UHGV virus genome: UHGV-1360109
DNA from: a virus
DNA: 25,357 bases
Strand: one strand, 5' to 3'
The notes beneath the pieces are model-generated. The model was not told the DNA's origin, did not search any database, and worked only from the letters and a program-made list of their open reading frames with translations. This document shows positions 2,062 to 20,175 of this stretch, piece after piece (position 1 is the stretch's first letter; the number at the start of each line of letters is the position of its first letter). The translations under genes and the position numbers were made by a program.

Positions 2062-4260
2062 ATGGCAGAAAAAAAGATGACTGACTGGCATCGCAAGGTG
2101 CTGTGCAACTTTGATAATGCCTGGTCAGCAACGCAGGATATGCGTGAGCAGATTATTGAGGCTCAACGTTTCGTCCGGGTGTCCGGCGCACAGTGGGAAG
2201 GCAGCACAAACGCTGGTTACTCATTTGATGAAGGCAGGTTTGAGCATTACCCGCGCTTTGAACTGAATAAGATTGCCCGTGAATGTGATCGCATCATTGG
2301 CGAGTATCGACAGAATCGCATCAGCGTTAAATTCAGGCCGAAGGATGACAGGGCATCGGAAGCGTTAGCCGAAAAGATGAACGGCAAATTCCGCGCTGAT
2401 TATCAGGAAACATCCGGTGGCGAAGCGTGTGATAACGCATTTGATGATGCTGTAACGGGCGGATTCGGTTGTTTCCGCATGTGTGCTGATTACGAAGATG
2501 AAATGGATCCGAGTAACGAGCAGCGACGCATCAGCCTTCTTCCTGTTTACGACCCGGCGACATGCGTCTTCTTCGATCAGGACAGCAAGCAATATGACCG
2601 CTCTGATGCTATGTGGGCTATGGAAATGTTCTCCATGACGCCTAAAGCGTTCGAGGCTGAATACCCTGATTCCATCGCGGCAAGTCTTTCTCGTGATGAC
2701 ACTGGCACTCAATATGACTGGTCAACTCCTGATGCTATCTATGTTGGTCGCTACTACGAAGTTCGCATAGAGAAGGTGAAGCTCACAGCATGGCGTAACC
2801 CTGTTAGCGGAGAAACGGCAATCTATGATGAAGAGCAAATCAAAGATATTGTCGACGAGCTGACCGATGGTGCATTCGAACTGATTGGTGAGCGGACAGT
2901 GAAGAAACGCCGAGTTTATTGCGGTCTTCTGTCTGGCGCTGAATGGCTGGAAGAACCGAAGCGTATTCCGGGCGAACATATTCCTCTCATCCCGGTATAT
3001 GGGCGTCGTTCATTTGTTGATAATCAGGAGCGAATCGAAGGCCACGCAGCAAAAGCGATGGATGCACAGCGTCTTGAGAACCTGATGGTTTCCATGATTG
3101 CAGATAACGCTACTCAGGCTGGCGGTGATGGCATTCCTGTAGTTGATGTTGACATGATTCCTGGTCCTCTTGCCACTCATTGGGCGGAGCGCAACAAAAA
3201 GCGCCCGGCGTTCCTGCCGATGGTCAGTCTGAAAAACAAAAACGGAGATATTACTGCGCAGGCTCAGGTCAGCAGTTATACACCTCCGACACAAATGCCT
3301 CCTGCTCTTGCCGGGCTATTGCAGTACACCGGAACGGCTATTCAGAAAATTACAGGTGCGTCGCAGCTTGAGAACATGCCGAGCAACGTCGCCACCGATA
3401 CCGTTGATAGCATCTTTAACCGGATGGACACGCAGTCCTATATCTACATGGACAACATGGCTAAATCCATGCGTCGCGCTGGCGTTGTGTGGCTTTCTAT
3501 GGCGCGTGAGGTCTATGGCAGTGATACGCCGATGCGTATCGTTAATGAGGACGGCAGCGATGACGTGGCGCTGATGACTGGTGAAGTGGTTGACCGTCAG
3601 ACAGGGCAGGTTATCGCGCTTAATGACCTTTCGCAGGGCAACTATGAAGTGACTGTCGATGTCGGTCAGTCGTTCGCTACTCGCCGTGATGCAACGGTTA
3701 AGTCGTTACTTTCCATGCTGGCACTTATCCCACCAGGAACGCAGAAGCACGACCTTGTATCGTCGATGATTCTCGACAATATGGACGGCGAAGGGATGGG
3801 CGACCTTAAAGAATACAACCGCAATCAGTTGCTTCTGTCTGGCGTTATCAAGCCGAGAACGCCTGAAGAACAGCAGATGGTTGAACAGGCGAAACAACAA
3901 CAGGCCAGTCAGCCAGATCCGGCTATGGTTGCAGCGCAAGGTCAGCTTCTTGCAGGTCAGGCTGAATTGCAGAAAGCGCAGAACGAACAGGCAGCCATTC
4001 AGGTTAAAGCATTCCAGGCACAGACTGATGCTCAGGTTGCAGCGGCAAACGTTGTGAAAATCCTCGCATCTGCCGATAGCCAGCAGAAATCTGATATCCG
4101 CGAGGCTCTGAAACTGCTCGGACAGTTCCAGCAACAGCAAGGAGACAATGCCCGTGCTGATGCAGAGCTTGTCCTGAAAAGTCAGGCACAGGGTCATGCG
4201 CAGCGAATGGACATCAGCAGCATCCTGCAAAAATCAACCCAGCAACAATCACAGCAGTAA
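2062..4260 (+). CDS. portal protein (P22 gp1-like)
   Basis: 732 aa, immediately after terL; Gln/Ala-rich C-terminal tail typical of the P22 portal barrel; conserved gene order. Confidence 0.92.
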   Translation: MAEKKMTDWHRKVLCNFDNAWSATQDMREQIIEAQRFVRVSGAQWEGSTNAGYSFDEGRFEHYPRFELNKIARECDRIIGEYRQNRISVKFRPKDDRASEALAEKMNGKFRADYQETSGGEACDNAFDDAVTGGFGCFRMCADYEDEMDPSNEQRRISLLPVYDPATCVFFDQDSKQYDRSDAMWAMEMFSMTPKAFEAEYPDSIAASLSRDDTGTQYDWSTPDAIYVGRYYEVRIEKVKLTAWRNPVSGETAIYDEEQIKDIVDELTDGAFELIGERTVKKRRVYCGLLSGAEWLEEPKRIPGEHIPLIPVYGRRSFVDNQERIEGHAAKAMDAQRLENLMVSMIADNATQAGGDGIPVVDVDMIPGPLATHWAERNKKRPAFLPMVSLKNKNGDITAQAQVSSYTPPTQMPPALAGLLQYTGTAIQKITGASQLENMPSNVATDTVDSIFNRMDTQSYIYMDNMAKSMRRAGVVWLSMAREVYGSDTPMRIVNEDGSDDVALMTGEVVDRQTGQVIALNDLSQGNYEVTVDVGQSFATRRDATVKSLLSMLALIPPGTQKHDLVSSMILDNMDGEGMGDLKEYNRNQLLLSGVIKPRTPEEQQMVEQAKQQQASQPDPAMVAAQGQLLAGQAELQKAQNEQAAIQVKAFQAQTDAQVAAANVVKILASADSQQKSDIREALKLLGQFQQQQGDNARADAELVLKSQAQGHAQRMDISSILQKSTQQQSQQ

Positions 4261-4350
4261 TTAACCAATAACGTGCAATGGCTGTCTTTATGAGGCCTGG
4301 CACCCTATTGCCTTCCGATGGGCTGAACATCGAGTAAACAGGGGTAACAA

Positions 4351-5244
4351 ATGGACCAGATGGCAGAAAACACACCAGAAGTTGAAATAGAAACCGATAC
4401 ATCAGAGCAGATTCCTGATGATGTCGAACTGGCTGAAGAAGTCGAAACAGAAGATGGCAGTGAGTCCTCCGGCAATGATGCAGAGGAAGCTACTGAAACT
4501 GATGACGACGAATCAGAACAGGAATTCTACTTTGGTGACGAAAAGCTGGATTCGCCAACCAGCGAAGATGGCGCTGAGCATGGACTGGTAAAACACCTGC
4601 GCAAGACGATTAAAGAGAAAGACCGCGAGCTGAAAGAGCTGATGCGTCAGTCTCAGAAACCCGTCGAGCAGCAGCCGGTAATCACTCAACCACCGCGAAT
4701 GCCAAAACTGGATGATGAGGACATCGGTTTCGATGAAGAAATCTACCAGCAACGCATGGCTAAGTGGGCAGAGGATAACGGCAAGTACCAGCAACAGGAG
4801 ATGGCTCGCAAGCAGAAGGTGCAGGAGCTTCAGGCTGCCTATCAAGAGCGATTATCCAAATATCAGCAACGTGTTAAGGCTCTCAAGGTTCCTAGCTATC
4901 AGGAAGCTGAACAGGCCGTACTCGAGGAAATCTCCATCGAGACACAAAACGCGATCCTGTTTGAGTCAGAGAAGCCGGAAATCGTTGTTCTGGCACTCGG
5001 TCGCAACGCTGAACTGCGCAAGCAACTGGCAGAAGCTACCAACCCCGTAGCAATTGGTCGTCTGCTGGAACGTATCGAATCGAAGGCCAGAATCATGCCA
5101 AAAGCAAAAACCACGGCAGCCACAACCCCGACAGTTAAGGGGAGCAACGGCGCAGTAATCAATAACCTCGACAAACTGAAAGCCAAAGCGCTGGAAACTG
5201 GTGACTGGACGCCGTATTTCGCCGCTAAAAGGCAAAAAAAATAA
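4351..5244 (+). CDS. scaffolding protein (P22 gp8-like)
   Basis: 297 aa; very acidic N-terminus, coiled-coil-like middle, basic C-terminus (LDKLKAKALETGDW...KRQKK) resembling the coat-binding end of P22 scaffold; sits between portal and coat; AGGGG RBS. Confidence 0.85.
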   Translation: MDQMAENTPEVEIETDTSEQIPDDVELAEEVETEDGSESSGNDAEEATETDDDESEQEFYFGDEKLDSPTSEDGAEHGLVKHLRKTIKEKDRELKELMRQSQKPVEQQPVITQPPRMPKLDDEDIGFDEEIYQQRMAKWAEDNGKYQQQEMARKQKVQELQAAYQERLSKYQQRVKALKVPSYQEAEQAVLEEISIETQNAILFESEKPEIVVLALGRNAELRKQLAEATNPVAIGRLLERIESKARIMPKAKTTAATTPTVKGSNGAVINNLDKLKAKALETGDWTPYFAAKRQKK

Positions 5245-10489: not shown

Positions 10490-11905
10490 ATGGCTACTTG
10501 GCAACAGGGTATTAATTCTGGTGGTTTTCTGGCTGGCATCGGTACGCAAAATGAGAATGCGCCAAAGGCAAGCGACATTAACGCAACGCTTGGTCTGATC
10601 CGCGAAAACAATGAACTGGCTCGATCAGGTGCAAATAACGTTGGTCTGACCGCGTTACGTGGTCTGGCTGGAGTTGCTGATATTTATAAGCAGGAACAGC
10701 AACAGAAAGCTATTAGTGCGTTCAATAAGGTTCACGCTGATGCATGGGCTTCTGGTGATCCATCGGGACTATTTAAGTTTGCCCAGGAAAATCCAGCGTT
10801 TGTTGCACAGGCACAACAGGCGTTTTCCGGTCTTAATGAGCAGCAACGCAACGATATGGGCGAGTTAGCCATGAGGGCTAACGTCGCTCTTTCTCAGGGA
10901 CCGGAAGCCTACAGTAAATTCATTACTGACAACAAGGACGGGTTAAATCGCGTGGGGGCGAATGCTGACTGGATGATTCAGACAGGTATCCAGAATCCAG
11001 AGCAGCTATCACACATGCTGACTACTATGTCTCTCGGTGCGCTTGGACCAGAAAAGGCGTTTGCTGTTCAGGATAAGATGGCTGGTCGTGAAATTGACCG
11101 AGGCAGGCTGGCAGAGACAATCCGCAGCAATCAGGCTGGAGAAGCACTTCAGGCGAGAGGGCAAAACCTTTCCTATCAGTCAGCAATGACTGGACACAAT
11201 ATCGCAGCACAACGCTTGGCTCTGGATCAGCAAGAGTTCGGGTTTAAGATGCAGCAAGCACAGGAAAAGGCTCAGCAGTTGATTAGCGAAGCACCTAAGC
11301 TGTCAGTAAACATGGAAAAAGGCATCGAGACGGCTGTAAACAATGCTACAGCATCATCAAACTCAGCCAATTCTATGAGTGCGCTTGCTCAACAGTTCAG
11401 AGCAGAAAAACCAACGACAGGTTTGTTCGGTAACGCACAGAACATGTTCGCAAAACTTACCGGAAGCGATACAACATTGCGTGATTTGCGCATCCGCCAA
11501 AATGCCCTTGTTAACAGTCAGGTTCTTAAATTCCTACCTCCCGGCCCCGCAACGGATAAAGACGTTGAGATCGTTCGGCAGGGTGCACCAACTGACATGG
11601 ATAACCCTGAGACGGTCGCAAGATGGCTTGATGCGATGGCAAACCTTGAGCGACGAAACGCGCAGTTTAATGAGTTTAAAGCCGAGTGGATGAGCGCGAA
11701 TGGCAATCCAGGACAATCGCGTAATGGCGGTCAGATATTGGGGTTGGATGTTAAAAAAGGTGAATCATTGGGGAGTGCCGTTAAGCGGTATATGTCAATG
11801 AATACTGACGCAGCGCCAGCACAAGATTCGACACCTTCAGGAGAACCACGGAATCAGGTTGGATCATATACCTCAAAATCAGGCATTCAATTTACGGTGG
11901 AATGA
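10490..11905 (+). CDS. ejection protein, P22 gp20-like
   Basis: 471 aa, the same length as P22 gp20; AAGGGG RBS; conserved order. Confidence 0.82.
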
Positions 11906-13743
11906 TGAAAGTAACTGCAAACGGTAAGACATTTACCTTTCCTGATGGTACGAGCACCGAAGATATTGGCACCGCCATTGATGAGTATTTTGCTGGTCAG
12001 GCTGTTCAGCAACAAACAGTTAATCAGGCCAATAATGCACCAACACGGGAAGAACCATCATTGATGCAACAAGCTGGCGATTGGCTCACTGGTGGTCAAA
12101 GTGCAGGGCAAATTGCAGAACAGGCTGGTCGTGGTCTGGTAAACATACCATTTGACGTATTGCAGGGCGGCGCAAGTCTGATTAATGCAATCAGCCAGGG
12201 GCTTGGTGGACCCAAGGTTTTGGATGATGTTTATCGTCCAGTAGACAGACCGACAGACCCCTACGCACAAGCCGGTGAAACAATTGGTGGGTATTTAGTT
12301 CCAGGAGTTGGAACGGCAGGAAGCATGGCTATTGGATCACTGGCAGAGGCCGCAAATCAGAAAGGCGATTTCGCACAAAATGCAGCTAAAAATGCCGGAG
12401 TTAACCTTGCCGCTCAGGGTGTTCTTTCCGCCGCAGCAAAGGGAATAGGGCGTGGAATAACGGCTATAAAAGGTGATATTGCGCCAGAAGTGGCGAAGAA
12501 AATTGCCACATCAGAATCGATGGGCGTGACACCAATGACATCTGATGTTATCCCGCCGAAAAATGCTTTCACTCGCGGCCTTACTCAGGATGCCGAGGGG
12601 GCTTTGCTCGGGACAGGCTCAAAGCGAGCGGAGCAATATGCAACGCGTAGTAAGCTGGTAAGTAATTATTTTGACCGTTTTGGTGAGTACAACCCTGATG
12701 ATGTAGTGAAATCTCTGACCACCACGTTAAGGGGGAGGAAGGATGCCGCTGGCGCTGTTATCAATGACGTCACCAATAAAATGGGTAATGCCGCAGTTGA
12801 TACCACAAATACCATGAATGCTCTGAATACAGCGATCGCAAGACAGGAACGACTTGGGACGTCTGCCAATCAAAGCCTGCTTACATCCTTGCGTAACCTA
12901 CGTGAAGAATTAGCAAACCCTGCAACTGATTTGGATGTTACGTTTGATCTCTTGCGTCAGCACAGAACAGCATTTAGATCTAATGTTCAGGGAGATGCTA
13001 TGGTCTTCCCCAACCAGGCAAAAGCAGCTACCAATATGGTAGAGAATGCAATGTCAAAAGACCTTCGTAACGCAGTTGCTAAAAACCTCGGTGCATCAGA
13101 CGCAGCAAAATACCTTAAAGCAAATTCCGATTATGCAAACGTTTATAATAAGGTGCTTAATAAAAACATTGCTAACAAACTCAACAAGGCAAGCAGTGAA
13201 GCCAGTCCTGAACTTATAAATACCGTTGTATTAAGCAGAAAACCATCTGACGTGAAACGAATCTGGAGCGCACTGGATGATAAAGGGAAAGATGCTATGC
13301 GTGCAGCTTACGTCAGCAAAATAGCGGAAAAGGCCGGTGACTCTCCAGCCAAGTTCATCACTGAAGTTAATAAGCTGAAATCTCAGTCAGGCGGTGAAAT
13401 TTACAACACTATTTTTTCTGGAAAGCACATGAAAGAACTTGATGCTCTTCATGAAGTTCTGCAGCAAACAGCAAGGTCAGACACCGCAAATGTAGTAACT
13501 CAGACGGGGCAATCGCAAGCCAACAGGATAAGGACGATTGGCGCAACTGCGACTCTTGGCGTATCAATGGGGCTTGAGGCTGGTTTCGGTGCAATGATGC
13601 GCTTGTATGAGTCCAAAGCAGCAAGGAATGCGCTCTTACGTCTGGCAAACACCAAAGCAGGAACACCAGCCTATGAAAGAGCGTTGAGTAACGCTGCAAA
13701 TGCCATCAGGCCGCTGCTTGCTACTGAGGCAACACAGCAGTAA
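11902..13743 (+). CDS. ejection protein, P22 gp16-like
   Basis: 613 aa; ATGA overlap with gp20; last gene of the ejection-protein trio. Confidence 0.82.
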
Positions 13744-13767
13744 CGTATGGGGAATTGGATTCAATCG

Positions 13768-14157
13768 TTAACATTTTCTTTTTACTTTTCCAACAAAAGC
13801 TTTGGTTGAATCCATATTCCCATAACCAGAAATGGTTTTTGACATTAAAACTGTTCCAGTAGGATGTATTACCCATGAGTCGATAACGCGTTGAGTTTCG
13901 CCATTCGCGCCGATTCCTATGATGGAGTTTTTAGACAATGCTTTGTAAGCCATGCCGCCCGCATCTGTCCCAGAATATGTGATGCTGGCATCTTCACCGC
14001 TTGTCTTAATGATGAATGTTCCACTAAAACCATCTTCTTCCGGATGGAAATTATTTCGTTCTGAATAGCTTATTCCGCGCATATCTCCAACGACCCAGCA
14101 CTCTGCTGTAGCCCCAAAAGATATGAATAAGAACATAGCAGCAAGAAATTGCTTCAC
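13768..14157 (-). CDS. small exported protein of unknown function (cargo gene)
   Basis: GTG start at 14157 preceded by a perfect TAAGGAGGT SD; N-terminus VKQFLAAMFLFISFGATA|EC is a signal peptide with an A-T-A signal-peptidase site; mature part has Cys near both ends; the longer ORF-track version (to 14373) has an implausible His/Cys-rich extension. Confidence 0.6.
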   Translation of the reverse strand: MKQFLAAMFLFISFGATAECWVVGDMRGISYSERNNFHPEEDGFSGTFIIKTSGEDASITYSGTDAGGMAYKALSKNSIIGIGANGETQRVIDSWVIHPTGTVLMSKTISGYGNMDSTKAFVGKVKRKC

Positions 14158-14187
14158 ACCAACCTCCTTAGTTTTGTGCAGGATACC

Positions 14188-14553
14188 ATGAAAAAAGTTA
14201 ACATTGGAAACGTACCAAAGATGCTCGTTCCGCTCTTTGAGAGCGGTACAATTGTGTTTTGTAGAGACTTTCCAGAATGGCAACGCCTGCATCAAAAACT
14301 TGGTGTGGACGTGCAGGACTCGGACGCCAACGGAGCGTCTCATACAATGAGCAGCGAGAATGGTGTTTTGCATGTGATAGGCGTGTTCAATGGCAAACTA
14401 TCTACTATTGCCCATGAGTGCGCTCACATGGCATTCGATATCTGCTCAAGGGTCGGTGTTGATGTTGAACCAGGAAGAGCCAACGAGACTTACTGCTACT
14501 TAATGAGCAGGCTTGTTGAGTTCTGCGAGCGACATATCAAAAAGCCGGAGTGA
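14188..14553 (+). CDS. small putative zinc metallopeptidase (HExxH motif), family unassigned
   Basis: 121 aa from ATG 14188 (MKKVNIGNVPKMLVPLFESG...); HECAH motif in IAHECAHMAFDICSRVGVDVEPGRANE with Glu 14 and 20 residues downstream; the ORF-track start at 14149 is a TTG. Confidence 0.55.
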   Translation: MKKVNIGNVPKMLVPLFESGTIVFCRDFPEWQRLHQKLGVDVQDSDANGASHTMSSENGVLHVIGVFNGKLSTIAHECAHMAFDICSRVGVDVEPGRANETYCYLMSRLVEFCERHIKKPE

Positions 14554-14566
14554 CCCGGCTTGATTA

Positions 14567-14746
14567 TTACTTTTTGCTGTCTGGAGTTCGCTTATCCAAT
14601 ACCCAGCCATGACCTGGCTTTGTTGTTGGTGGAAGCCTTTCGTTGTCCTTGACGGTGGCAAAATTGTCTTTCTTACCGCCGCGTGGGCCAACTTCTTGGT
14701 ATATTCCGCCGTTTTTTCCTGTGTTTTCACCTGGTTTTTTCGCCAT
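14567..14746 (-). CDS. YjzC-like small protein
   Basis: 59 aa (MAKKPGENTGKNGGIYQEVGPRGGKKDNFATVKDNERLPPTTKPGHGWVLDKRTPDSKK); the G..GIY.EVGP.GG ... LPPT ... W pattern resembles the YjzC-like family as I remember it; GAGGT RBS 7 nt upstream of ATG 14746. Confidence 0.55.
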   Translation of the reverse strand: MAKKPGENTGKNGGIYQEVGPRGGKKDNFATVKDNERLPPTTKPGHGWVLDKRTPDSKK

Positions 14747-14782
14747 GATATACCTCAACATGCACCCGTTATTGGGCGATTA

Positions 14783-14811
14783 AATATTGATCTCATTTTA
14801 TGAGTAGTCAA
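14783..14811 (-). promoter_or_regulatory. candidate sigma70 promoter for the YjzC-like gene with a dyad in the spacer
   Basis: On the minus strand: TTGACT (14811-14806), 17-bp spacer, AATATT (14788-14783); the spacer contains the palindrome CTCAT-TTT-ATGAG (14792-14804). Confidence 0.3.
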
Positions 14812-14837
14812 TATGGTCCAAAAAAGGTAAAAATTAA

Positions 14838-14859
14838 CCCACCGTCAGGTGGGTTTTTT
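14838..14859. terminator. bidirectional rho-independent terminator
   Basis: CCCACC-GTCA-GGTGGG hairpin; T-run on the plus strand (14854-14859) and a U-rich tract on the minus strand (complement of AAAAAGGTAAAAATTAA); lies about 25 nt downstream of the ClpP-like gene stop. Confidence 0.7.
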
Positions 14860-14884
14860 ATAAGGAGTAATCATGATTTACCCA

Positions 14885-15421
14885 TCAAACAACCCACCAG
14901 TTTGCCTGATTGGATGCCAGCCTTGCAGTTTTTATGGAATTAATTATGCCATGCTCAAGAGCCTTGTTAGCATCCAAAATGGTCGAGTCTGCTATCAGGG
15001 ATGCCCACCTAATATGGGTTCCGATGTCGATATTGAACGTCTCAACGAAGCGATCAAGATCGTTATCGAGGCATTTCCCGTACTCTCTCAATCTGGCATG
15101 GTCGGCGGCTGGGGAGGCAAAGCACCATAATAGAGGATGTAACAGGAATCTTGATAATGGGTTTGCGAAACGTTCTGAGCCAGCCAGGAAAACGATATTA
15201 GCTATGGATTCAACATTGCTTATGTTGTGAGTTCTAACGGTAACAGGGAGTGACTTAAGAAAGTTATACGCAGTAAAGCCAGCGGCAGTTTCCCCTCCCT
15301 GACTTGATATATGGATATTTAATTCAGTTGCGCCTTGAGATAATGCGGTGAGACAGTGGTTCTGAAGTTGCCCAACAGTGGCAGTGTTAACGGGGCATAA
15401 GAAATGAATTGTGTGCAGCAT
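14885..15421 (-). CDS. ClpP/SppA-fold serine peptidase homologue (cargo gene, co-transcribed with mnt)
   Basis: 178 aa; ELNIHISSQGGETAAGFTAYNFLKSLPVTVRTHNISNVESIANIVFLAGSERFANPLSRFLLHP aligns by eye with E. coli ClpP [67 protein letters not shown]; candidate nucleophile Ser and His are in place; start ATG shares one base with the mnt stop (TAATG). Confidence 0.75.
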   Translation of the reverse strand: MLHTIHFLCPVNTATVGQLQNHCLTALSQGATELNIHISSQGGETAAGFTAYNFLKSLPVTVRTHNISNVESIANIVFLAGSERFANPLSRFLLHPLLWCFASPAADHARLREYGKCLDNDLDRFVETFNIDIGTHIRWASLIADSTILDANKALEHGIINSIKTARLASNQANWWVV

Positions 15422-15675
15422 TATTTATCATCCTTGCCATAAATCTTTTTAAGTGTCTCAAACACAACGGCCTTGAACTGCTCTGCTTGCTGATCAGCCA
15501 AGCGTTCAGCTTCGTCTCGATAGCCTGCAATCGGTGATGGCTTTGAGAGAGCATCCTGAACGATTTGTAATAACTCAGAGTTCATTGACCTTCCGTTAGC
15601 CTCTGCTCTTAATTTCAATTTTTCTCTTACTTCCAAAGGCATACGGAAGTTAAAGTGCGGATCGTTTCTAGCCAT
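15421..15675 (-). CDS. mnt: Mnt repressor (ribbon-helix-helix)
   Basis: 84 aa; MARNDPHFNFRMPLEVREKLKLRAEANGRSMNSELLQIVQDALSKPSP closely resembles P22 Mnt; GGGGTGA RBS; divergent from arc across the operator region. Confidence 0.92.
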   Translation of the reverse strand: MARNDPHFNFRMPLEVREKLKLRAEANGRSMNSELLQIVQDALSKPSPIAGYRDEAERLADQQAEQFKAVVFETLKKIYGKDDK

Positions 15676-17229: not shown

Positions 17230-20175
17230 ATGACAGACATTACAGCCAATGTTGTGGTAAGCATGCCTTCGCAACTCTTCACTATGGCGCGTTCTTTTAA
17301 AGCCGTAGCTAATGGCAAAATTTATATCGGTAAAATTGACACTGATCCTGTAAATCCAGAAAACCAGATTCAGGTCTATGTGGAGAATGAAGACGGTTCT
17401 CACGTTCCTGTTTCGCAACCAATAATCATTAACGCTGCTGGATATTCTGTATATAACGGACAGATTGCCAAATTCGTTACCGTGCAAGGCCATTCTATGG
17501 CTGTTTATGATGCGTATGGTGCGCAGCAGTTCTATTTTCCTAATGTGCTGAAGTATGACCCTGATCAACTACGGCAGCAATTAGAAGACCCAGATGGAGC
17601 GAATAAATACCCAAAACTTCAGATAGCAAGATGGAGAGACAGTTATGATGTAAGAGGTTGGGGGGCTATTGGTGATGGTGTTCATGATGATACATCAGCT
17701 CTATCAGAATTACTTTCTGTTGCAACAGGTGGTGAAAAGATAGATGGGCGAGGGCTTACTTTTAAAGTATCAACTCTTCCGGATGTCAGTCGATTTAAAA
17801 ATGCTCGTTTTTTATTTGAGAGAATACCGGGCCAGCCTCTTTTTTATGCTTCTGAAGATTTTATCCAGGGAGAGTTATTTAAAATTACAGATACACCGTG
17901 GTACAACGCCTGGACGCAGGATAAAACGTTTGTATATGACAATGTCATCTATGCGCCTTTTATGGCTGGAGACCGCCATGGTGTAAATAACCTCCATGTT
18001 GCATGGGTTCGCTCAGGAGATGACGGGAAGACCTGGACAACGCCGGAATGGCTTACAGATTTACATGAAAACTATCCCACAGTTAACTATCACTGCATGA
18101 GTATGGGGGTTGTCAGAAATCGCCTTTTTGCTGTAATTGAGACGCGGACCGTGAGAGGAAATAAACTGCAGGTTGCAGAGTTGTGGGATCGCCCAATGAG
18201 TCGCAGCCTTCGCGTTTATGGTGGTATAACGAAAGCAGCAAATCAGCAAGTCGCTTATATTCGCATTACTGATCACGGATTATTTGCTGGTGATTTTGTC
18301 AACTTCTCAAACTCTGGTGTTACAGATGTTACCGGGAATATGACGGTGACTACTGTTATTGATAAAAATACCTTTACAGTTACGACGCAAAATACCCAGG
18401 ATGTGGATCAGAATAACGAGGGTAGATACTGGAGTTTTGGTACATCATTTCACTCGTCACCATGGAGAAAAACCAGTCTTGGAACTATTCCTTCTTTTGT
18501 TGACGGAAGCACTCCTGTTACTGAGATTCACAGTTTTGCGACGATTAGCGATAACAGTTTTGCTGTTGGCTACCATAATGGTGATATTGGTCCACGCGAG
18601 CTTGGGATACTCTATTTCTCTGATGCTTTCGGTTCTCCTGGTAGCTTTGTTCGCAGACGCATACCTGCAGAATATGAGGCGAATGCATCTGAGCCATGTG
18701 TAAAATATTATGATGGCATTCTGTATCTGACGACCAGGGGGACATTAAGTACTCAACCCGGTAGTTCATTGCACAGAAGCTCTGATTTAGGTACATCATG
18801 GAATTCTCTTCGCTTCCCAAATAATGTTCATCACTCAAACCTTCCTTTTGCCAAAGTTGGCGATGAGCTGATTATTTTTGGCAGTGAGCGCGCATTTGGT
18901 GAGTGGGAAGGAGGAGAACCTGATAACCGTTATGCAGGAAATTATCCAAGAACATTTATGACCAGAGTTAACGTCAATGAGTGGAGTCTGGATAATGTAG
19001 AGTGGGTTAATGTTACTGATCAGATTTATCAGGGCGGAATAGTTAACTCTGCGGTTGGTGTTGGTTCAGTTTGTATCAAAGACAACTGGCTGTACTACAT
19101 TTTCGGTGGGGAAGATTTTCTAAACCCATGGAGCATAGGGGATAACAACAGAAAATATCCTTATGTTCACGATGGTCACCCGGCTGATTTGTATTGTTTC
19201 AGGGTGAAAATTAAACAGGAAGAATTTGTTTCAAGGGATTTTGTCTACGGAGCCACTCCTAACAGAACGCTTCCTACTTTTATGTCGACGTCAGGCGTGA
19301 GGACGGTTCCTGTACCCGTTGATTTCACAGATGATGTTGCCGTCCAGTCACTGACTGTCCATGCAGGTACATCAGGACAAGTTCGCGCGGAAGTCAAACT
19401 TGAGGGTAATTACGCCATTATTGCGAAGAAAGTACCGTCTGATGATGTTACCGCTCAGAGATTAATCGTTAGCGGCGGTGAAACAACGTCTTCAGCAGAT
19501 GGTGCAATGATAACGTTGCATGGTTCCAGAAGCAGTACTCCACGTCGCGCGGTATATAACGCACTCGAACATCTTTTTGAGAACGGAGATGTTAAACCTT
19601 ATCTTGATAATGTAAATGCTCTTGGTGGTCCGGGAAACAGGTTCTCGATAGTTTATCTTGGCTCCAATCCTGTGGTTACCAGTGACGGAACATTAAAGAC
19701 AGAGCCGGTCTCTCCTGACGAAACATTGCTGGATGCCTGGGGTGACGTCAGGTATATCGCTTATAAATGGCTGAACGCTGTCGCTATAAAGGGGGAAGAA
19801 GGGGCGAGGATACATCATGGTGTAATCGCGCAGCAACTTCGTGATGTTCTTATTTCTCACGGACTCATGGAAGAAGAAAGCACAACATGCCGCTATGCGT
19901 TTCTTTGCTATGACGATTATCCCGCAGTATATGATGACGTCATTACTGGCCAAAGGGAAATGCCGCTGACTGATAATGACGGGAGCATCATTGTTGATGA
20001 GGATGATAATCCAGTGATGGTAATGGAAGACATCATTGAGCGCGTTGAAATAACGCCAGCAGGATCTAGATGGGGGGTCAGGCCTGATCTCTTATTCTAT
20101 ATCGAGGCGGCATGGCAGCGCAGAGAAATGGATAAGATAAAAGCTAGGTTAGACTTAATAGAAGGGAAGCACTAA
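17230..20175 (+). CDS. tailspike: P22 gp9-like head-binding N-terminus fused to an endosialidase body with a C-terminal intramolecular chaperone domain
   Basis: 981 aa; first ~110 aa ([59 protein letters not shown]...[15 protein letters not shown]...VLKYDPDQ) match the P22 tailspike N-terminus; Asp-box motifs SGDDGKTW and SSDLGTSW; TSDGTLK near the C-terminal ~160 aa fits the Ser-Lys auto-cleaving chaperone pattern; GGAG RBS. Confidence 0.88.

Follow-up and report, generated by a model that had tools for sequence, protein, structure and literature searches.

A cargo gene for a predicted exported protein in the sieA expression site of a P22-like Escherichia coli prophage

The gene and its place in the prophage

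The DNA analysed here, UHGV virus genome UHGV-1360109 (25,357 nucleotides; hereafter the window), is a P22-type prophage of E. coli that resembles CUS-3 and phiv205-1 and carries an integrase. A gene of 129 codons occupies positions 13768-14157 on its minus strand, with a GTG start codon at 14157-14155 and a stop codon at 13768-13770. The 129-residue precursor reads (V/M)KQFLAAMFLFISFGATAECWVV...KVKRKC*, and its ends as translated are (V/M)KQFLAAMFLFISFGATAECWVVGD...KAFVGKVKRKC*. A Shine-Dalgarno sequence, TAAGGAGGT, lies at 14170-14162 on the same strand and is followed by four nucleotides, TGGT, and then by GTG; it is identical before sieA in P22. The initial annotation had described a GTG start behind a perfect TAAGGAGGT; both are present, and both are conserved among IMG/VR loci. 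A tblastn search of IMG/VR with the protein gave 228 matches; in the best 80 of these, GTG is kept in 67, and the exact TAAGGAGGT in 64 of those 67. The motif occurs once in the 25-kb window, where 0.13 copies are expected, and 11 of 100 shuffles contained at least one copy, so that its copy number alone is weak evidence. Another 12 of the best 80 loci carry a second allele with an ATG start codon, a different ribosome-binding site (RBS) and an unrelated signal peptide, MKLIIAMAFLVFSFSVSA; its mature part is almost identical to that encoded in the window and also begins with ECWVVGD. The 37 distinct nucleotide alleles from the best 80 of the 228 matches, the window and the Emek copies are all intact and 390 nucleotides long, and dN/dS is 0.06-0.18 in their mature part. 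The gene is a genuine, conserved prophage gene under purifying selection.

Two other reading frames were rejected. A mechanically called ORF of 201 residues, which extends up to 14373, overlaps the neighbouring HExxH gene and is not conserved; it is not the gene because homology among prophages stops exactly at the GTG. The internal ATG (M8) at which many database entries begin has no Shine-Dalgarno sequence, and a start there would lose the n-region of the signal peptide. Such entries give 122 residues instead of 129 for the window protein (Met8) and 103 instead of 134 for Sf6 gp38. Annotation from an internal Met deletes the signal peptide, so that screens for exported proteins would miss the family.

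The convergent neighbour (11902-13743, plus strand; 613 residues) encodes a DNA-transfer (ejection) protein of the gp16 type and has 68.6% nucleotide identity to P22 gene 16. A spacer of 24 nucleotides between the two stop codons (13744-13767) forms the right-hand boundary of the cassette, and this spacing is the same in all contexts of the gene. The gp16 neighbours in homologous loci belong to PF26808 (Phage_P22_gp16) and have 608-636 residues. On the other side stands a divergent gene with an HExxH motif, HECAH (14188-14553, plus strand; 121 residues, phrog_1365). Its ATG at 14188 is 30 nucleotides from the GTG, which bears out the divergent arrangement noted earlier. The HExxH gene is identical to the P22 ORF beside sieA, a 121-residue ORF that carries no annotation in record AF527608 (P22-pbi). 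The neighbour on this side varies among prophages (P63C, PIN, SocA_Panacea or Rap1a), and the HExxH gene is not an obligate partner.

The position of the gene, between the gp16-type ejection gene and the immunity-I genes, is the exact place of sieA in P22; in CUS-3 this slot holds hkcB. Positions 14155-14862 of the window, which take in the HExxH gene and a region of small ORFs after it, are 97.7% identical to P22, beginning at the start codon of the gene; on the left, homology to P22 is found again from 13745, within gene 16. The replacement has therefore affected no more than the coding sequence of sieA and a short spacer. The RBS, the leader, the stretch of the P sieA promoter and the HExxH neighbour are all P22-like, and the RBS that the initial annotation called unusually strong is thus the sieA RBS. 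Its strength is not a trait of this gene, since it belongs to a common sieA leader that stands before at least 12 unrelated ORFs. The start codon, RBS, leader and annotated promoter of the gene are those of sieA, whose place it has taken. The stretch identical to P sieA (14188-14218, minus strand) corresponds to 13861-13891 of AF527608 as annotated there and lies within the start of the HExxH gene. A consensus promoter scan of 13600-14700 found no sigma-70 site, so that promoter activity rests on the AF527608 annotation. The promoter of the gene must lie inside the 5' end of the divergent HExxH gene.

Several other features of this prophage are worth recording. The prophage is one of K1/APEC E. 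coli, and its ejection-protein and sieA-slot modules are unlike those of CUS-3. In the tailspike (gene at 17230-20175, plus strand), a complete endosialidase, which is a K1 polysialic-acid depolymerase, is joined to the P22 head-binding domain and to a chaperone domain at the C-terminus. P22-like prophages (L012-L017) differ greatly in what lies between the sieA slot and mnt: P63C, PIN, SocA/Panacea, ClpP-like or HExxH genes occur there, and the region looks like a small defence island. A gene at 14885-15421 (minus strand) encodes a ClpP-like serine protease of 178 residues (PF00574, E 2e-11), whose closest relatives are phage head-maturation proteases. This gene starts 1 nucleotide inside the stop codon of mnt (15421-15675), far from any capsid gene, and would be co-transcribed with that maintenance repressor gene. 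The mnt-ClpP pair is seen again in locus L012.

Predicted export and fold of the product

The protein looks exported by a Sec-type route, as predicted from the -3/-1 rule, hydrophobicity and conservation in the family. The predicted signal peptide (14104-14157, minus strand) comprises residues 1-18, MKQFLAAMFLFISFGATA, with an n-region that contains K2, an h-region FLAAMFLFISF, a hydrophobic core of 12 residues, and Ala at both -3 and -1; cleavage is expected after ATA and before EC. Such an n-h-c organization with small residues at -3/-1 is that of Sec/SPase I export. Among 193 full-length family members, position -1 is A, S or G in 88%, and 189 of the 193 have K or R in the n-region. The basic residue, the hydrophobic core, the Ala residues at -3 and -1 and the family-wide conservation agree with the signal peptide and A-T-A cleavage site proposed in the initial annotation. 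The two alleles of the gene carry unlike signal peptides on one mature protein, which is good evidence that export matters.

The mature domain (residues 19-129; 13771-14103, minus strand) has 111 residues, close to the roughly 110 given earlier, and has a Cys near each end as described there. Cys20 (codon 14098-14100) is mature residue 2, and Cys129 (codon 13771-13773) is the last residue. The invariant positions in alignment A1 are C20, W21, G28, D42, Y71, G81, W95, K107 and G123, and C129 is nearly invariant. Two or four Cys residues are found in 182 of 193 family members, the last Cys lies within three residues of the C-terminus in 162 of 196, and an aromatic residue follows the first Cys in 93% of 193. 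A Cys near each end would allow one disulfide in the periplasm, and we infer that it joins Cys20 to Cys129. A soluble periplasmic location of the protein is likely. A lipoprotein of the Llp/Cor type, with the pattern [LVI][ASTVI][GAS]C and Cys at +1, was rejected: the window protein has ...GATA before the cleavage site and EC after it, which places Cys at +2 rather than +1, and a lipobox-like sequence is found in 3 of the 193 family members.

AlphaFold2 (AF2), run on a 25-sequence alignment, predicts that the mature domain is a soluble up-and-down beta-barrel. The model has a mean pLDDT of 88, a pTM of 0.77 and nine antiparallel strands; pLDDT is low over residues 1-20, and the only helix covers residues 4-10 of the signal peptide. 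The first strand (residues 18-32) and the last (115-128) are expected to pair and close the barrel, bringing C20 near C129. The structural part of the initial annotation is borne out as far as computation reaches. Foldseek searches of the PDB and BFVD gave no match below E 1e-3, and so no specific structural relative, and a sequence-profile search of the PDB gave nothing, with a best E of 1.1. The predicted barrel is of a generic fold, which says nothing about a target. An eight-stranded outer-membrane barrel of the OmpX/NspA/OmpW type was rejected because four of the AF2 strands have only 4-6 residues, the last strand has six charged residues, and the C-terminus, KVKRKC, ends in Cys and has no aromatic beta-signal.

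The protein family, its leader and its slots

The protein matches phrog_2651 (E 9.2e-61), with residues 14-129 aligned to positions 1-116 of a profile of 117. A profile search of 1.84 billion cluster representatives gave 190 clusters at E up to 1e-3, and nearly all of the clusters listed are single-domain proteins of about 125-135 residues. The window protein has all of the family features: a length of 125-135 residues, a signal peptide, an aromatic residue after the Cys at mature +2, conserved DG, ETW and FVG motifs, and a Cys no more than three residues from the C-terminus. Pfam, NCBIfam and PADLOC scans of this protein, Sf6 gp38 and 36 remote relatives gave nothing significant. At E up to 1, the defence HMMs of PADLOC-DB v2 matched neither the window protein nor Sf6 gp38 (0 families), and at E up to 1-10 none of the immunity families of Pfam was matched, nor were MliC and Rap1a. 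A literature search found no paper on the family. Of 5426 complete E. coli genomes, 147 have the gene, always on the chromosome. The exact protein is indexed in 1281 blocks of an assembly collection and is encoded on more than 900 contigs of E. coli, E. albertii and Salmonella, where it is always labelled 'hypothetical protein'; a scan of genome contigs gave only 3 loci. Named members come from Escherichia, Salmonella, Citrobacter, Enterobacter, Klebsiella, Yersinia, Cronobacter, Serratia, Rahnella, Aeromonas and Arsukibacterium.

The gene is preceded by a conserved leader of 29 nucleotides, GGTATCCTGNNCAAAACTAAGGAGGTTGG (14159-14187, minus strand). An exact-pattern scan of IMG/VR for this leader found at least 120 loci (L115-L234). 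The ORFs that start at the GTG after the leader in the 120 loci listed fall into at least 12 families without BLASTP similarity to one another. The family described here is the commonest cassette among them (27 loci), followed by phrog_5962 (24), phrog_8100 (15), phrog_21338 (10), phrog_7294 (8), SieA (phrog_7745; 7) and six smaller families with 2-6 loci each. Nine of the 12 families pass a 19-residue hydrophobicity test for a transmembrane segment or signal peptide, two open with a shorter hydrophobic stretch, and one looks cytoplasmic; SieA is the only one of the 12 with a known function. The sequence varies upstream of -30 and downstream of the GTG, and the leader is a mosaic joint because the DNA diverges on both sides of it. 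The distance from the end of the cassette to the stop codon of the convergent gp16 gene is mostly 0-24 nucleotides and in a few loci 45-91. A regulatory RNA structure in the leader was rejected (fold z-score 0.3). The exact upkeep of the leader could be due to its role as a recombination joint or as a translational signal. The ORF in the window is a prophage cargo gene ('moron'), a self-contained cassette in the sieA expression site.

Relatives of the gene also occupy other slots. One true homologue is the protein of Sf6 gene 38 (27% identity, E 4e-12), and the Sf6-type subfamily follows a cI-type repressor gene (HTH_3 plus Peptidase_S24). In lambda, the post-repressor position is that of rexAB. 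In Rac-like Enterobacter prophages, as in an Sf6-type one of E. coli, the family gene and the stop codon of the repressor gene overlap by 4 bp; in Cronobacter prophages the family gene lies 8 nucleotides downstream of a cI-type repressor gene. In P22-like prophages, an allele with an ATG start codon and 87% identity forms an operon with mnt and rap1a, in the order mnt-rap1a-gene. One remote member, a moron in reverse orientation, lies by the tape-measure gene in a siphovirus-type prophage, and in one case it adjoins rexA/rexB. The Aeromonas and Arsukibacterium members are found in non-phage islands, at edges beside integrases or among small orphan genes in the vicinity of a Tse2/Tsi2 pair. No neighbour is conserved across the loci examined, those in the Aeromonas, metagenomic, Arsukibacterium and siphovirus loci being mutually unrelated, and an obligate partner gene was rejected on this ground. 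Since no neighbour is conserved and the gp16 neighbours vary in length as given above, the protein evidently works alone.

Three of these loci have features of their own. A remnant prophage next to fliE in Cronobacter (L238, 5360-8314) has little more than a repressor gene, the family member, a DUF1233 ORF and int, and such a module of repressor and cargo may have been kept by selection after the phage decayed. In the mnt operon of the P22-like prophages, a Rap1a-family gene (PF18602, the T6SS Tae4/Ssp1 immunity family) lies between mnt and the allele (L004-L007, 5650-5985), and the prophage may supply orphan T6SS immunity from this operon. In a siphovirus tail-gene cluster (L023), a small exported Cys-rich ORF of 95 residues (4207-4494, minus strand) lies on the strand opposite to the remote family member, about 500 nucleotides upstream of it.

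Possible function and comparison with known systems

The position of the gene suggests that it probably protects the lysogen at the cell envelope. Our preferred but tentative reading, with a probability of about 0.42, is that it encodes a stand-alone periplasmic protective factor made from the prophage, most likely for superinfection exclusion by hindering phage penetration or DNA delivery. This reading follows from the recurrence of a single exported protein in slots for genes expressed in lysogeny. The sieA and rex positions are classically held by exclusion functions. The initial annotation had likewise pointed to superinfection exclusion or lysogenic conversion; the exact replacement of sieA and the relatives after repressor genes, in the mnt operon and beside rexAB speak for this proposal, whereas similarity to SieA or to defence models was not found.

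In the proposed mechanism, the gene would be transcribed leftward from the sieA-type promoter region, apart from the late operon, and would thus be expressed in the lysogen. The common TAAGGAGGT leader and the GTG would allow efficient translation of the 129-residue precursor, which would be exported by Sec and cleaved after ATA. The 111-residue product would fold in the periplasm as a small soluble up-and-down beta-barrel, with a DsbA-made Cys20-Cys129 disulfide tying the first and last strands together. It would act at the cell envelope without a partner gene and so protect the lysogen. The most likely target would be a component that is exposed to the periplasm and that an incoming phage needs, for example the trans-envelope ejection conduit or the needle, or a factor of the host envelope. 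DNA entry would thereby be blocked, and the protein would be a soluble periplasmic analogue of SieA.

Some of the evidence argues against exclusion. The protein has no homology link to any exclusion or defence protein in the PADLOC, Pfam and NCBIfam scans or in the comparison with SieA, and the consensus scan found no sigma-70 promoter upstream of the gene. The family occurs in podovirus, siphovirus and lambdoid prophages and in non-phage islands, a distribution that accords no less well with a general envelope function than with a specific block of P22-type ejection proteins. A broader proposal, that the protein represents a new class of soluble periplasmic exclusion factors and that the leader is a plug-in socket for at least 12 unrelated, mostly envelope-located entry blockers, is doubtful.

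The allele that shares an operon with a T6SS-immunity-family gene points towards another reading, in which the protein is a periplasmic immunity or inhibitor protein against an envelope-targeting enzyme, for example a T6SS amidase or muramidase, a lysozyme, a lytic transglycosylase or a colicin-type toxin. We regard this as unlikely on balance, and the same holds for its corollary that the lysogen gains in bacterial competition or in the host and not against phages. The 87%-identical allele lies immediately downstream of the Rap1a-family (PF18602, Tae4-immunity) gene in the mnt operon, a Tse2/Tsi2-like pair is found about 1.5 kb away from a remote member, the family is wide in Gammaproteobacteria, including non-phage islands, and its size and fold class resemble those of PliC, MliC and PhiA. 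However, none of the loci examined has a cognate effector gene next to the family member, MliC, Rap1a and the immunity families of Pfam are not matched at the E values given above, and the structural match to PhiA ranks 55th, below many unrelated barrels. Moreover, the slots used by the family, at sieA, after cI and beside rexAB, are known for anti-phage cargo.

Readings in which the protein binds a ligand or assists the lytic cycle are less likely than exclusion and immunity. A binder of a ligand or envelope component of the lipocalin or avidin kind (lipid, LPS precursor, haem or siderophore), which would bring about lysogenic conversion without exclusion, is improbable. The top structural matches of the model include FABP/CRABP, lipocalins, avidins, nitrobindin, hemophilin and NHBA/TbpB barrels, one member bears the UniRef label 'Organic solvent tolerance-like N-terminal domain' protein, and the prophage, which is of pathogenic E. 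coli lineages, has an endosialidase tailspike for the K1 capsule; but these matches are all weak and generic (Foldseek E above 1e-2, TM 0.3-0.5), and no ligand-binding motif was identified. It is very improbable that the protein is an accessory of the lytic cycle, for instance one that modulates, from the periplasm, lysis or DNA delivery by the phage itself. The gene adjoins the ejection-protein genes and is linked in the sample to one C-terminal type of gp16 (...ATEATQQ). However, that gp16 type pairs with other cassettes too, the gp16 neighbours have 608-636 residues, and the gene is transcribed against the late operon from a sieA-type leader. Relatives also lie after repressor genes, far from structural genes, and one is kept in a remnant prophage.

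Which other phages can attack a lysogen, and possibly which competitors, depends on the cargo genes that temperate phages bring with them. Envelope morons in exclusion slots are a well-known kind of element, and the gene described here is common in prophages. The present analysis adds the exact cassette swap with sieA, the presence of its leader before at least 12 unrelated cassettes and the finding that the family recurs behind repressor genes of prophages. Entry of DNA is blocked by SieA, and most P22-like phages are without sieA, which is carried by 22 of 66 (PMC10883804). At the sieA site of these phages, only SieA has been studied so far. The result is a short set of candidates for exclusion at the level of the envelope, present in pathogenic E. 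coli, Salmonella and Cronobacter and open to direct testing, which is relevant to predicting the host range of phages for therapy.

Among known systems, Rap1a/Tai4 (PF18602) proteins are small and periplasmic like the predicted product, and a Rap1a-family gene lies directly upstream of one allele in an operon. Rap1a is helical, whereas the window protein is predicted to be all-beta, has no PF18602 match and has no Rap1a neighbour in the window. MliC/PliC inhibitors carry the motifs SxSGAxY and YxxxTKG. The window protein differs from PliC, MliC and PhiA in that it has neither motif and no PF09864 match, and many unrelated barrels score higher than these proteins. Sf6 gp38 resembles it in length, in a signal peptide followed by xCW and in the C-terminal Cys, but the genes for gp38 and its lambdoid homologues occupy a rex-type slot after a cI-type repressor gene and not the sieA slot. 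T5 Llp and Cor of phi80 and N15 are small, phage-encoded, Sec-exported disulfide proteins that block the FhuA receptor, and they are outer-membrane lipoproteins. The window protein is likewise small, phage-encoded and stand-alone, and its export and disulfide are predicted; unlike these lipoproteins with Cys at +1, its family has AxA before the cleavage site and xC after it, with Cys at +2. Llp is also described in 10.64898/2026.03.26.714494.

SieA is a polytopic inner-membrane protein of 164 residues with a cytoplasmic motif, FxRYPxEAxxFNK (PMC10883804), whereas the window protein is a predicted cleaved, soluble barrel of 111 residues. Comparison with SieA types A-C gave a BLASTP E of 0.89, the motif FxRYPxEAxxFNK is absent, and the only hydrophobic segment of the window protein is the signal peptide. 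At the level of the locus, by contrast, the gene shares with P22 sieA its slot, orientation, start codon, RBS, 29-nucleotide leader, annotated promoter stretch and convergence with gene 16, and its product, if located as predicted, is like SieA an envelope-located protein of a P22-like prophage.
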